Positions 526 to 3,643 of a DNA stretch of 64,000 nucleotides are shown here, piece after piece. The position numbers were made by a program, and so were the translations under genes. Within the stretch, counting starts at the first letter, position 1. Each line of letters starts with the position of its first letter. The notes below the pieces were generated by a model. The model had not been told where the DNA came from. It worked only from the letters and a program-made list of their open reading frames with translations, and did no database searches. Origin of the DNA: Erysipelotrichaceae bacterium (lineage in GTDB: Bacteria > Bacillota_I > Bacilli_A > RFN20 > CAG-826); assembly GCA_015058945.1 (NCBI GenBank), contig SVBF01000007.1, positions 133,850 through 197,849 of the forward strand, in the 5' to 3' direction.

Positions 526-2130
526 TCAGATCTTGTAGATGTTGCCGTCGATGTTGAATTCCGCGGCGGAGTTGAAGGTGGTGCCGGTGATTTTGACCGA
601 ACCTTGCTTGAAGAAGTCGGTACGCCAGACCCGACGTCCTTGTTCCCCGCCCTTCGTTCCGTCTCCTAACGGCCAGTCTGAGCCGCAACTCACGTCATAG
701 GCGAACTTCACCCTACCGTAATTGGCTGGGATGGCGACGGAGCGTTCGTTCCCCGTGAAGAGCGTGGTGTCGCGATAAAGGAGCTCCTCTTTACCAAAGG
801 TGGGATTGCCATCTTCATCGAAGCCGTCGACGGGGCAAGCCTTAACCCACCACTCCTTGATCGTGAAGACTCCCTTGTTTTCCATTTTGAAGGTCGAACC
901 CGTGAGGACTTCGTAGGAAGTGTCGATATATTCGGTCGTCGCCTGGATACGGGCGAAATCGCTGTTCTTGAGCCAGGAAGTGCCGTAGCTCAGCATAATG
1001 GCGTTTTCGACCTGTTCCGCTAACGGGGTCTGACCCTTGAGAAGGAGGTCATTGATCTTATCGGCCGCGTCTTCGCCTTCGATCGGGGTGAGGTTTTGGA
1101 AGTCATCGGCGACGCCACCATAGACGAGGCAGTTGACTTTGCAGTTCTCGAGCGTCTTGGTGAATTTGGCTTTGCTCTCGAGGTCGACCTTGCCGGCATA
1201 GCTGAATCCGGCGTCGAGCTGGGACTTGTCCATGCTGGTCTCGACCTTGAGGTAGATGGTTTGGCCATAGTTGGCCGTAGAGATGAGCAGCGGGGGTTCG
1301 TTTGGGGAGATTTCGCGCTGAACGTCTTCCAAGGTGACCTCTTCGTCGAAGATGACGGTCGATTTCTTGCCTTCGAGCACGACGTTGACGGTGAAGAAGA
1401 TCTGCTCGAACGCGACGACGAAGATGTTGGTTTCGCCGCCTTGCTCGTATTTGGCGTCGATCTTTAATTTCTCGCCGATGCCAAAGCCGAGGTCGACCGC
1501 AAGCTGCGACGAGTTAAAGGCTTGGGTGATGCTGAAGCTTTGGTTGGCGGTGAGCTTCTTGCCGAGCGTCTTCCATTCGGCGAGCTTGGTGTTGAGTTTG
1601 GAACGGTAGGACGACGAAATGGTTTCTTCGATGGAGAAGGTGTTATCCGTCAAACCGGGAAGGATGAGTTCGTACGTCCCTTTGCCGCGATCCAAATCCG
1701 TGATGGCGGTGGGAACGCCTTCGACGAGTTTGCTGTTGGCCTTGAGGATCTGTCCGGGATAGAGCAAGTTCGAGAGGTTGAGGGAATGGAGGCTCGCGGT
1801 GCCGGACTTGGCGCTTTTGACATCCTTCTTGGTGATGACGAGGCGCCCGTCTTCCATTTTGCCGGACTTGCTGGGTTCGTATTTGGAGCCGCCGTTGAGG
1901 TCATATTGCCAGACCTTCTCGGTGTCGAACTCCATGTTTTTGATGTAGTCGGAGACCGTTTTGTCGGGGGAAATCTTAATATCCTTACGCTGGACCTCCG
2001 GGGTGGGTTCGGGCTCTACCTCGACGACTGGTTCAGGCTCTTCGATCGGCGCGGCGACTTTGCTGCATCCCGCGGCAAAGGTCATGCCGAGGAGGCCGGC
2101 GGATAAGACTAAGAACTTACTGAGCTTCAT
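526..2130 (-). CDS. Lipoprotein of the cholesterol-dependent cytolysin (thiol-activated cytolysin/MACPF-CDC) fold, 'CDC-like' with a divergent C-terminal domain.
   Basis: Signal peptide plus lipobox (LLGMTFAAGC) and a Pro/Glu-rich linker. The core aligns with perfringolysin-type domains 1-3 (e.g. NIFVVAFEQIFFTVNV...PPLLISTANYGQTIYLKVETS versus PFO QIVNFKQIYYTVSV...PLVYISSVAYGRQVYLKLETT). The C-terminal domain lacks the canonical ECTGLAWEWWR undecapeptide, with only an 'EWW' retained. The ATG at 2130 (MKLSK) has a GAGG RBS; the ORF track's alternative TTG start is at 2139. Confidence 0.7.
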   Translation of the reverse strand: MKLSKFLVLSAGLLGMTFAAGCSKVAAPIEEPEPVVEVEPEPTPEVQRKDIKISPDKTVSDYIKNMEFDTEKVWQYDLNGGSKYEPSKSGKMEDGRLVITKKDVKSAKSGTASLHSLNLSNLLYPGQILKANSKLVEGVPTAITDLDRGKGTYELILPGLTDNTFSIEETISSSYRSKLNTKLAEWKTLGKKLTANQSFSITQAFNSSQLAVDLGFGIGEKLKIDAKYEQGGETNIFVVAFEQIFFTVNVVLEGKKSTVIFDEEVTLEDVQREISPNEPPLLISTANYGQTIYLKVETSMDKSQLDAGFSYAGKVDLESKAKFTKTLENCKVNCLVYGGVADDFQNLTPIEGEDAADKINDLLLKGQTPLAEQVENAIMLSYGTSWLKNSDFARIQATTEYIDTSYEVLTGSTFKMENKGVFTIKEWWVKACPVDGFDEDGNPTFGKEELLYRDTTLFTGNERSVAIPANYGRVKFAYDVSCGSDWPLGDGTKGGEQGRRVWRTDFFKQGSVKITGTTFNSAAEFNIDGNIYKI

Positions 2131-2782
2131 TGATGGCAACCTCGCTTTCCAGTTTCATTTTTTGGACTTCCTTATAGGACACTTGCAGGCATCCGTAGAT
2201 GATGCCATAGGAGACGATGAACCCGACTTCGCCGACCAAGTAGATCGAGGTCGCGACGATGCCGTCCATCTTCACGATGAAGACGATGAAGTCGAGGACC
2301 GTGCAGATGACCATGATCCCGAGGGCGACGCAGACGAAGCCGAATAACGGGGACTTCCTCTCCTGTTTGTCGTAGATGCCTTCGATCAGTTCGAAGACCG
2401 AGCCGGCGATGCAGAAGCCGGCCAACATCGAAAGGACATTCGCGGGGATGCGGCTTTCCAAGCTGTATTCGAGCGCGACGGAGAAGATGGCCATCAATGC
2501 CGCGGCAAAGCCAAGCCAGAAGGCGGCGAGGCATTGCCTATTGACCACCATGGTGATGATCAAGATCACCGCAAAGACGACCATGCCAACGAGTCTTGCG
2601 ATGCTGAAGATCGACGTTAGCAAGGCGATCGTGATGGCGACGCCGTCGGGAAGGGTTTCGCTTCCGGCGAGCCCCGAGGCGATGGCAGCCGAGGCCAGCG
2701 ACAAAATGCTCACGATGAAATAGACGAGGAAAACCAGTCTAAGCAACCGTAGAGCGCGAATTCTTTTTGGGATATTTGTCAT
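2117..2782 (-). CDS. Polytopic membrane protein (about 6 TM) of unknown function, co-operonic with the CDC-like lipoprotein.
   Basis: The ORF track extends to 3043, but the internal ATG at 2782 (MTNIPK...) is preceded by a perfect GGAGG RBS at the correct spacing. The stop lies 10 bp before the CDC-like start. Confidence 0.6.
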   Translation of the reverse strand: MTNIPKRIRALRLLRLVFLVYFIVSILSLASAAIASGLAGSETLPDGVAITIALLTSIFSIARLVGMVVFAVILIITMVVNRQCLAAFWLGFAAALMAIFSVALEYSLESRIPANVLSMLAGFCIAGSVFELIEGIYDKQERKSPLFGFVCVALGIMVICTVLDFIVFIVKMDGIVATSIYLVGEVGFIVSYGIIYGCLQVSYKEVQKMKLESEVAINEAQ

Positions 2783-2856
2783 ATTTACCTCCTTGTTTGG
2801 ATTCGCTTTGATTTGATTATACATGCTCGCGCTTGAGCGGATAATCGACAATGGGG

Positions 2857-2873
2857 TGTTCCGAAGTGGAACA
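2857..2873. promoter_or_regulatory. Palindromic candidate operator TGTTCC-GAAGT-GGAACA, about 75 bp upstream of the membrane/CDC-like operon.
   Basis: Perfect inverted repeat. It is a variant of the GTTTC-N5-GAAAC palindromes found upstream of the lipoprotein genes at 27-36 kb. It lies in the divergent intergenic region shared with the RR/HK pair. Confidence 0.5.
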
Positions 2874-3046
2874 TGCCGCGGTCCAAGGTTATGCCGACGA
2901 TGATCGAAAGCGGAGCCGATCCATCCGTTTTTCCGTCCCTCTCGACGGCGAAACCGACCAAGCTCGCGCAACATAATTTCGAAATTGCCGTCGCGTTGCC
3001 TGTATAATTTGGGGAACAAATGTGCGCTATTGCGCAGGAACACATC

Positions 3047-3643
3047 ATGAACCAGACATTCTCGAAAACGTTACGGAAGCTCCGAACGGCGCGCGGGTTA
3101 ACCCAAAGTGCCCTCGCGGAACGTCTTTTCGTCACCAGACCCACCATCGCCCGGTGGGAATCCGGCTCGCGTTTGCCTGACGTCGTCATGATCAAACGGC
3201 TGTCCCAGGTTTTAGGCGTCGACGTGGACTCTCTCCTTTCCGCCGCCCAAAGCGACGAATGCCCCAACGTGATCCTCGTGGATGACCGCAAATTGGTCCT
3301 CACGGGCGGTCTGCCCATTTTGGAAGAGGCTTTGCCTAATGCGAGCGTCACGGGATTCACCGACGGCGACGAAGCCTTGGAGTTCGCTAGGTCCAACCGC
3401 GTCGCCTTGGCCTTCCTCGACATTGAGCTGCGCGGCATGAGCGGGCTCGACCTTTGCCGGAAGCTTCTTGAGATCAACCCCCGCACCAACATCGTCTTCT
3501 TGACCGCCTATGCAGACTATTCCCTCGACGCCTGGGCTACCGGCGCAAGCGGCTTCATGCTCAAACCCATCACCGTCGAAGGAGTCAAGGAACAACTGAA
3601 AAAACTGCGCTACCCCTTCTATTTGGGAGAAGAGGTGGCATGA
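3047..3643 (+). CDS. Response regulator with inverted architecture: N-terminal XRE-family HTH and C-terminal receiver (REC) domain.
   Basis: The N-terminus TLRKLRTARGLTQSALAERLFVTRPTIARWESG matches the HTH_XRE family. The C-terminus carries receiver signatures (VILVDD, LDIELRGMSG, LTAY, LKPI). The start was chosen at MNQTF by alignment with the paralog at 33044; the ORF track starts at 3020. Its stop overlaps the kinase start (ATGA). Confidence 0.75.
   Translation: MNQTFSKTLRKLRTARGLTQSALAERLFVTRPTIARWESGSRLPDVVMIKRLSQVLGVDVDSLLSAAQSDECPNVILVDDRKLVLTGGLPILEEALPNASVTGFTDGDEALEFARSNRVALAFLDIELRGMSGLDLCRKLLEINPRTNIVFLTAYADYSLDAWATGASGFMLKPITVEGVKEQLKKLRYPFYLGEEVA

Follow-up and report, generated by a model that had tools for sequence, protein, structure and literature searches.

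A palindromic candidate operator was studied in 64,000 nucleotides of DNA from an Erysipelotrichaceae bacterium (NCBI GenBank assembly GCA_015058945.1, contig SVBF01000007.1, forward strand positions 133,850 to 197,849), a stretch referred to here as the window and numbered from its first base. The palindrome lies between two divergently transcribed gene pairs. To one side, on the minus strand, is a putative operon encoding a membrane protein and a lipoprotein that resembles the cholesterol-dependent cytolysins (CDCs); to the other, on the plus strand, is a two-component system consisting of a response regulator (RR1) and a histidine kinase (HK1), to which a second pair located elsewhere in the window (RR2 and HK2) is paralogous.

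By Pfam assignment, RR1 (3047..3643, plus strand) carries an N-terminal helix-turn-helix (HTH) domain of the XRE type at residues 9-62 (HTH_3, 3e-15; HTH_31, 1.5e-13) and, at its C-terminus, a REC (receiver) domain at residues 75-183 (Response_reg, 3.4e-18). The AlphaFold2 (AF2) model of the protein, with a pLDDT of 85, placed the helices of the HTH at residues 3-15, 20-27, 31-39, 46-56 and 60-66, a five-helix XRE fold of which R31-S39 forms the recognition helix, and its receiver fold matched CheY/PhoP-type structures (E about 1e-7). Residues D79, D80, D125, T153 and K173 were invariant across 34 homologues, indicating an intact receiver domain. The gene for HK1 (3640..4905, plus strand) starts at 3640 and overlaps the RR1 stop (3643); its product is a membrane histidine kinase in which a multi-pass N-terminal region is followed by the His_kinase (PF06580, 1.5e-17) and HATPase_c domains. 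A consensus scan located a sigma-70-type promoter for this gene pair, TCGAAA-18-TATAAT (2979..3008, plus strand), 106 nt beyond the palindrome and kept in the related loci L081 and L082.

The first gene of the minus-strand operon (2117..2782), recognised as an open reading frame, encodes a polytopic membrane protein of 221 aa for which no Pfam or NCBIfam match was found. A ribosome-binding site, GGAGG (2792..2788, minus strand), stands ahead of this gene, which overlaps the second gene by 14 nt. The latter (526..2130, minus strand) encodes a 534 aa protein that begins with a lipoprotein signal peptide (lipobox LLGMTFAAGC) and matches Thiol_cytolysin (PF01289, 8.1e-51) over residues 59-407, corresponding to domains 1-3. 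No Pfam match at E <= 0.01 to the canonical CDC C-terminal domain 4, which holds the undecapeptide, was obtained in the last 125 residues, hence the product is described here as CDC-like and not as a classical CDC. Within this unmatched C-terminal region of about 125 residues, the motif KEWWVK recalls WEWWR, with which the CDC undecapeptide ends. The CDC-like family is rare, with 8 clusters in the protein collection searched. An immunity-like or protective role for the 221-aa membrane protein is speculation.

The palindrome and its conservation

The palindrome TGTTCC-GAAGT-GGAACA occupies positions 2857..2873, with a core of the form GTTCC-N5-GGAAC at 2858-2872, and is a putative binding site for a dimer of RR1. 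An initial annotation of this DNA had reported the element, placed it about 75 bp upstream of the membrane-protein/CDC-like operon within the divergent region shared with the RR1/HK1 pair, and noted a T-to-C change in each half-site relative to a group of sites at 27-36 kb. These statements were borne out by our reading of the sequence. Counted from the first base of the ATG that opens the membrane-protein gene (2782, minus strand), the core begins at 76 nt, and its far end is 175 nt short of where RR1 begins (3047); the sole difference between GTTCC-N5-GGAAC and the GTTTC-N5-GAAAC of the other sites is C in place of T at half-site position 4, mirrored in the other arm. The core pattern was present as a single copy in the window, against 0.08 expected. 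When the 264-nt intergenic region was shuffled 200,000 times, 22% of the shuffles held some palindrome of the 5-N5-5 type, and 0.38% held one with a half-site at most one substitution from GTTTC (P = 0.0038).

Conservation was assessed at two evolutionary depths, the first of which was the window's own clade, comprising the window and five contigs with RR1 relatives of 97, 93, 83, 81 and 81% identity. The exact GTTCC-N5-GGAAC pattern was found in all five relatives, and across the six loci both arms were invariant, whereas the spacer varied and the remaining intergenic DNA had strongly diverged. Four of the five relatives harboured the membrane-protein/CDC-like operon as the divergent neighbour, with the membrane-protein gene always ahead of the CDC-like gene, and the fifth (L104) carried two ABC-transporter genes in this position. 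The distance from the core to the divergent start codon was 70-79 nt in all six loci, L104 included, and that from the core to the regulator start was 144-318 nt; because the former is constant whilst the latter drifts, the palindrome travels with the divergent promoter. In one of the 81% relatives (L105:1-4683), the membrane-protein/CDC-like operon was present as two tandem copies, with the palindrome at the regulator-proximal copy only. ABC exporter genes were also observed directly downstream of the CDC-like gene in L083 (1503-5024), as they were directly behind the palindrome in L104 (1065-4606), an order that fits an insertion by which the membrane-protein/CDC-like pair came to separate an older operator-promoter from its ABC cargo.

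A protein search with RR1 gave upwards of 6,000 clusters at E <= 1e-10. From one genome per species, 80 ortholog loci of 66-81% identity were assembled, nearly all from rumen or gut metagenome-assembled genomes (MAGs), and 78 of these had enough upstream DNA for a span of 400 bp ahead of the regulator to be searched. Absence of the palindrome from orthologous loci had been set beforehand as grounds for abandoning the proposed operator; it was instead found in exact form ahead of the regulator at 37 of the 78 loci, in most cases between -85 and -140. Over the 742 kb of the 80 loci, 51 GTTCC-N5-GGAAC sites were counted, where about 0.7 would be expected for a 10-base pattern at uniform composition, and the GTTTC-N5-GAAAC form was encountered not once. 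The ortholog sites gave the consensus TGTTCCA-N3-TGGAACA. On the divergent side, 20 ortholog sites had a -10-like box at a distance of exactly 29 nt from the core, compared with 1-3 for other offsets, and on the regulator side a TTGTTT/TATAAT promoter was found with its -10 box 43-45 nt from the palindrome. A kinase homologue was encoded directly downstream of the regulator in 80/80 loci.

The genes behind the palindrome were far less uniform. In the more distant orthologs they encoded two families of membrane proteins of about 220 aa, further membrane proteins of 169 and 252 aa, surface proteins that exceed 1,000 aa and bear signal peptides, and ABC exporters; one product appeared to be a MATE-like transporter, judged from its N-terminal sequence alone. 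The CDC-like operon was considered and rejected as a general neighbour of RR1, as no homologue of either the CDC-like or the membrane protein was encoded within 6 kb in any of the 80 loci. A common origin of the 221-aa membrane protein with the membrane proteins of about 220 aa divergent to other RR1 orthologs was likewise rejected (hhalign probability <1%). Since none of these cargo products is related to the window's membrane protein or CDC-like protein, the conserved unit is the regulator, the kinase and the operator/promoter, with an interchangeable cargo related to the cell envelope, and by this gene-content comparison the CDC-like operon is cargo in the window's lineage only.

Co-variation of the paralogous regulators and their proposed operators

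The second system of the window (33044..34923, plus strand) consists of RR2 (33044-33649) and HK2 (33646-34923; PF06580, 8e-16) and has the same architecture as RR1/HK1, with identities of 54% between the regulators and 47% between the kinases. The GTTTC-N5-GAAAC pattern was present in five copies in the window (27684, 28794, 29338, 32956 and 36444), compared with 0.12 expected, and five copies were reached in 0/100 shuffles. All five are candidate operators of the RR2 type. The first, GTTTCATGTTGAAAC (27684..27698), lies 29 nt from a TATAAT upstream of a gene for a CBM26 lipoprotein (26500-27618, minus strand); the second, GTTTCGGATTGAAAC (28794..28808), lies 29 nt from a TATAAT upstream of another lipoprotein gene (28273-28701, minus strand); and the third, GTTTCATATTGAAAC (29338..29352), again 29 nt from a TATAAT, precedes a gene for a small membrane protein. 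The sequence GTTTCGGATTGAAAC recurs at 32956..32970 in the divergent region between a lipoprotein gene (32368-32895, minus strand) and RR2, with a minus-strand TAGAAT at 29 nt and a plus-strand TAAAAT at 25 nt, and is conserved in RR2 orthologs. The fifth site, GTTTCAATTTGAAAC (36444..36458), is 40 nt from a TATAAT upstream of a gene for a secreted protein (35738-36355, minus strand). Four of the five sites are thus followed on the minus strand by TATAAT or TAGAAT at exactly 29 nt, and the fifth at one helical turn more. Judged by these sequence patterns, the five sites are a coherent predicted regulon centred on RR2/HK2.

Loci of RR2 orthologs were collected from a metagenome scan and from four looked-up homologous proteins. 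In all seven distinct loci with upstream DNA, in which the recognition helix reads xRSSVANWEAD, GTTTC-N5-GAAAC was found 63-100 nt upstream of the regulator, and GTTCC-N5-GGAAC was found in 0/7. By eye, the strict 29-nt promoter phasing seen in the window was not universal among these orthologs.

Alignment of the recognition helices, which the initial annotation had proposed as a check, showed that RR1 and RR2 differ (TRPTIARWESG and IRSSVANWEAD, respectively), with position 36 tracking the operator class. Its suggestion that the paralogous regulators had co-diverged with their operators was also supported, in that the exact palindromes at RR1 loci were of the GTTCC and never of the GTTTC form, and those at RR2 loci the reverse. 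This was evident when loci were tabulated by the residue before the conserved Trp of the recognition helix: Arg at this position was accompanied by 45 GTTCC/GGAAC sites and 0 GTTTC/GAAAC sites, and Asn by GTTTC/GAAAC in 10/10 cases, a count that includes duplicate contigs and the window itself. In a comparison of 44 distinct RR1-class HTH sequences with 8 of the RR2 class, the residues at HTH columns 6, 10, 11, 14, 15, 28, 36, 40 and 65 were disjoint, and within the recognition helix (31-39) position 36 alone partitioned the two classes, as Arg or Asn. In phage repressors, specificity is set by few residues, at recognition-helix positions 1, 2 and 6. Arg36 of RR1 aligns with what we take to be position 6 of this helix, Gln33 of the 434 repressor, which reads inner base pairs of the half-site. 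Contacts of Arg with guanine and of Asn with adenine would fit C:G and T:A, respectively, at the variable operator position, and we infer that Arg36 versus Asn is the discriminating contact. From these comparisons, the duplicated RR1 and RR2 systems appear to read different DNA addresses.

How far the two circuits are separated is a further matter. The single-base operator difference between the paralogs may not fully discriminate RR1 from RR2. Around the phospho-accepting His, a run of 19 residues (LQMRPHFIYNTMTSIYYLC) is the same in HK1 and HK2, and cross-phosphorylation between the two systems may therefore be possible; insulation at the level of the kinases is not evident from sequence.

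Other branches of the regulator family carried related 5-N5-5 sites, asymmetric or different in sequence, at the same location, of the forms GTTCC-N5-GTCAC, TTTCC-AGATT-GTCAA and GTGGC-N5-GCCAC. The sister-clade sites in question read GGTTCC-AGAAT-GTCACA, TTTCC-AGATT-GTCAA and, as a palindrome, GTGGC-AGAAT-GCCAC, and were borne by L029, L046, L048, L053, L054, L062, L065, L076, L077 and others, at about -90 to -125 from the regulator start, and by L089-L093 and L096. This pattern suggests a family-wide 5-N5-5 operator template with evolvable half-sites.

Proposed promoter geometry and mode of control

Directly after the palindrome on the minus strand, the motif ACCCCnTTG was common to all six clade loci, and CAATgGGGT adjoined the palindrome in many distant orthologs. 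In the window this conserved flank, ACCCCATTGTCG (2846..2857, minus strand), holds a -35-like TTGTCG at 2851..2846 (spacer positions 7-12), a candidate -35 element. At the family-conserved spacing of 29 nt from the core stands a candidate weak -10 box, GAGCAT (2823..2828, minus strand). The hexamers at this offset in the six clade loci were GAGCAT, GAGCAT, GAGAAT, AATAAT, TATGGT and GAATAT, all with A at the second and T at the sixth position, and the distance from TTGnnn to the weak -10 was 17 nt. An alternative -10, a perfect TATAAT (2816..2821, minus strand), lies 36 nt from the core; neither L082 nor L083 keeps it, and its helical phase does not match that of the 29- and 40-nt sites. The initial annotation had attributed to the palindrome the same geometry as the 27-36 kb sites, which is correct for the palindrome itself and fails for the promoter, where the best -10 stands at 36 nt instead of 29 or 40 nt. 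No sigma-70 consensus promoter was found by consensus scan on the minus strand between 2700 and 3100, as would be expected for an activator-dependent promoter.

Taken with the comparative data, we consider it probable that the palindrome is the operator of RR1, that phosphorylated RR1 activates the membrane-protein/CDC-like operon, and that RR2 reads the GTTTC/GAAAC variant. Sequence comparison directly supports the motif, its conservation, its link to the divergent promoter and the co-variation of regulator and operator; binding by RR1, dependence on phosphorylation, activation over repression and the individual promoter elements are predictions from the same material. HK1 would sense a signal, probably membrane-associated, and phosphorylate RR1 at Asp125. 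The phosphorylated RR1 would then dimerise, such that its two HTHs read TGTTCC and GGAACA, the centres of which are 10-11 bp, or one helical turn, apart. Seated directly upstream of TTGTCG, the weak -35-like element of the minus strand, and with its centre near -49 should the spacing of 29 nt apply, the dimer would aid RNA polymerase at the operon running from 2782 to 526. RR2 would read the same template with T for C at half-site position 4 and control the five lipoprotein/membrane-protein promoters at 27-36 kb.

Several observations weigh against this reading. About half of the RR1 orthologs were without the exact palindrome, many of them with asymmetric variants, and 25 showed nothing that our strict patterns recognise. 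In L105, the palindrome was not found in the 322-nt region before the distal tandem operon. The promoter geometry in the window is ambiguous, because its only good -10 (TATAAT) stands at 36 nt from the core, neither 29 nor 40, and the GAGCAT at 29 nt is poor. With regard to specificity, positions 28 and 40 and several helix 1 columns partition the two regulator classes as well as position 36 does, and because the operator classes coincide with two clades, the Arg/Asn correlation is effectively one evolutionary event. Finally, members of the XRE family are more often repressors than activators.

The last point bears on the possibility that RR1 acts at the palindrome as a repressor or dual regulator, either of the CDC-like operon or of its own operon, as would be typical of XRE/Cro-C1 proteins. 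In Clostridia-type orthologs the palindrome is followed, in addition, by a good TTGTTT/TATAAT regulator promoter with its -10 box about 44 nt downstream, and the XRE-type regulator DigR activates and represses from variably placed sites (PMC3509222). We nevertheless regard repression or dual control as unlikely, given that the palindrome is situated upstream of the -35/-10/start region on both sides and not over it, and that fixed 29-nt phasing to a weak promoter without a consensus -35 is the signature of an activator in contact with RNA polymerase. Activation is preferred on two grounds: the position of the site ahead of the core promoter, and its fixed phase with a promoter that lacks consensus elements.

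It would be more surprising still if the palindrome served autoregulation of RR1/HK1 only, with the CDC-like operon a mere neighbour. Such a role would suit most of the distant orthologs, whose palindrome stands 85-140 nt ahead of the regulator start and 43-45 nt from the regulator promoter, and the absence of the CDC-like operon from all 80 ortholog loci. Within the clade, however, it is the 70-79 nt to the divergent gene that is constant, against 144-318 nt to the regulator, and the regulator promoter is at least 106 nt away; moreover, both the ACCCCnTTG flank and the -10 at 29 nt point to the minus strand. It was observed that loci of the clade hold 100-250 nt of extra GC-rich DNA between the operator and the regulator promoter (window 2874-3001 compared with L003-L080), whereas most Clostridia-labelled orthologs have the operator only about 44 nt from the -10 of the regulator promoter. 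As this extra DNA separates the two elements, autoregulation may have been lost or changed in the window's clade.

Binding of the motif by a different protein, encoded elsewhere, seems very improbable. The link between RR1 and the motif is one of sequence comparison, which leaves room for another binder, but the XRE-REC regulator and its kinase are the sole gene pair common to all motif-bearing loci, amongst cargo genes that are mutually unrelated, and the motif variant switches exactly with the recognition helix of the regulator.

GGAAC and TGAAAC are classic -35 motifs of promoters recognised by extracytoplasmic function (ECF) sigma factors (sigma-E, sigma-W and sigma-M, for instance), and both the GGAAC and GAAAC arms match ECF -35 consensus sequences. 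Conservation, however, extends to both arms, which form an inverted repeat about a spacer of constant 5-nt length; the -10 partner is TATAAT-like and at 29 nt, not at 16-17 nt, and no CGT-type -10 was seen at that distance. The XRE-REC regulator is linked to every one of the loci, an ECF sigma gene to none. On the spacing and the conservation of both arms we reject the arms as ECF -35 elements, a reading to which we give almost no credence.

Equally little credence can be given to the palindrome as an RNA or DNA hairpin, for instance a transcribed stem-loop or a terminator remnant. The 31-nt stretch does fold as RNA, with a moderate energy of -14.3 kcal/mol for the plus strand and -9.9 kcal/mol for the minus strand (z-scores -3.6 and -3.1). 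Against this, the arms are invariant and show no co-variation, and sister clades carry GTTCC on one side and GTCAC on the other at the same position, a stem broken without compensation; that several family sites are not self-complementary argues against an RNA hairpin. On either strand the palindrome also precedes the predicted -10 box; it has no T-run, and no Rfam match was returned for the region other than a miRNA model at E = 0.12. A functionless chance occurrence, for which the frequency of 5-N5-5 palindromes of any kind in shuffled DNA might speak, is already effectively refuted by the rarity of this class in the same shuffles, by the ortholog enrichment and by the invariance of the arms in diverged relatives, and is the least credible explanation of all.

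Relation to known systems and further features of the window

A two-component regulator with a palindromic operator is of a known kind; the domain architecture found here is uncharacterised and the motif is newly inferred. No NCBIfam model, PDB entry or publication among the literature searched was found for the HTH_XRE-REC domain order, and PDB matches covered the receiver only. A literature search for XRE-type response regulators yielded DigR as the sole characterised one. DigR, which forms the SgmT/DigR system of Myxococcus xanthus, combines a receiver with an HTH_Xre domain, binds the palindrome TAATC-N14-GATTA, presumably as a dimer, and has a regulon rich in secreted proteins (PMC3509222). 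RR1 resembles it in being a response regulator with an XRE-type DNA-binding domain and a putative palindromic site. The HTH of DigR is C-terminal, whereas that of RR1 is N-terminal and followed by the receiver, hence RR1 is not of the DigR type. The two also differ in their operators (TAATC-N14-GATTA as opposed to 5-N5-5), in their kinases, SgmT being a cytoplasmic hybrid GAF/GGDEF kinase and HK1 a polytopic PF06580 kinase, and in gene context, as DigR is encoded by an orphan gene and RR1 in an operon with HK1.

The kinases HK1 and HK2 share with LytS, BtsS (YehU) and YesM the PF06580 and HATPase_c core behind a multi-pass sensor, and the receiver of RR1 was closest in sequence and fold to those of BtsR, LytR and AraT/XynC. 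The regulators LytR, BtsR (YehT) and YesN nonetheless have a C-terminal LytTR or AraC output domain and bind direct repeats, unlike RR1 with its N-terminal XRE HTH and putative palindromic site. No match to the LytTR domain was obtained in RR1, which, because it lacks a LytTR or AraC output domain, falls outside the LytS/LytR, BtsS/BtsR and YesM/YesN families. With the lambdoid repressors and Cro (434, P22 and lambda cI), RR1 shares the HTH_3 fold. These proteins, which RR1 resembles in its predicted way of reading DNA, bind as dimers to short half-sites, inverted and spaced by roughly one turn of the helix, and lambda cI in addition uses a site next to the -35 for activation. The phage repressors differ in that their dimerisation is constitutive or cooperative, without a phosphorylatable receiver, and in that their operator sequences are unrelated to the one proposed for RR1.

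Insulation of paralogous two-component pathways after duplication, and the specificity of kinase for regulator that underlies it, have reportedly been studied by Capra and Laub. The likeness to such cases is that of a duplicated kinase/regulator pair in one genome with diverged specificity determinants. The known cases concern the interface of kinase and regulator, whereas the divergence visible between RR1 and RR2 is at the interface of regulator and DNA and amounts to one base per half-site. Being one base per half-site and one recognition-helix residue apart, the paralogs offer a clean hypothesis for insulation at the DNA level after pathway duplication.

The CDC-like (CDCL) toxins characterised to date are from Bacteroidota only, amongst them the BfCDCLs with their co-encoded lipoprotein immunity protein BcdI, and two-component control of CDCLs is not mentioned in that work (PMC11169675). 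The window's CDC-like protein has in common with CDCLs the cytolysin domains 1-3, the lipoprotein character and an operon with a possible protective partner. It differs in its host, a Bacilli-type rumen MAG, and in being encoded by a single CDCL gene with a polytopic membrane partner, as opposed to the long/short pair with a lipoprotein partner of the BfCDCLs. The palindrome would be the likely control point of this rare CDC-like lipoprotein in a rumen Bacilli lineage, and provides a concrete regulator-operator pair for a large response-regulator family without a characterised member. The presence of the same operator before very different membrane, surface and export genes across genomes suggests a portable regulatory cassette.

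A broader proposal is offered tentatively, and we doubt that it will hold in full: that proteins with the XRE HTH first and the receiver last, together with LytS/YesM-type kinases, constitute a class with a simple, reprogrammable 5-N5-5 code, an Arg36/Asn switch that turns the half-site from GTTCC to GTTTC, circuits of duplicated systems insulated at the DNA level, and interchangeable cargo promoters, and that the CDC-like lipoprotein and its partner membrane protein are under signal control. If so, rumen and gut Firmicutes would widely harbour a class of response regulators not described before, and the CDC-like lipoprotein would be the first regulated CDCL outside Bacteroidota.

Some minor features were observed around the regulator gene. 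Isolated GGAACA half-sites occur at 3013-3018 and 3037-3042 (plus strand), 24 bp apart and downstream of the -10 of the RR1 promoter, the second overlapping the weak RR1 ribosome-binding site. The pair was present in the 97% and 93% relatives and not clearly so in the 83% relative, and could represent auto-regulatory half-sites or coincidence. Between them, in the 5' leader of RR1, is a small hairpin, TGCGC-TATT-GCGCA (3023-3036), which L081 and L082 keep with changes in the loop only. Convergent to HK1 lies a gene for a cardiolipin-synthase-like PLD protein (PLDc_N and two PLDc_2 domains; 4969-6498, minus strand), found in the same position in L081 and L082.

Beyond this gene, a Type I restriction-modification locus was identified from Pfam matches at 6655-16623, with hsdR at 13780-16623 and hsdM at 12190-13764. 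Four hsdS-like genes of alternating orientation (7650-8714, plus; 8707-9837, minus; 9879-11033, plus; 11117-12193, minus) are adjoined by a tyrosine recombinase gene (6655-7569). By gene order and Pfam assignment, the layout of the locus is that of a phase-variable hsdS shufflon.

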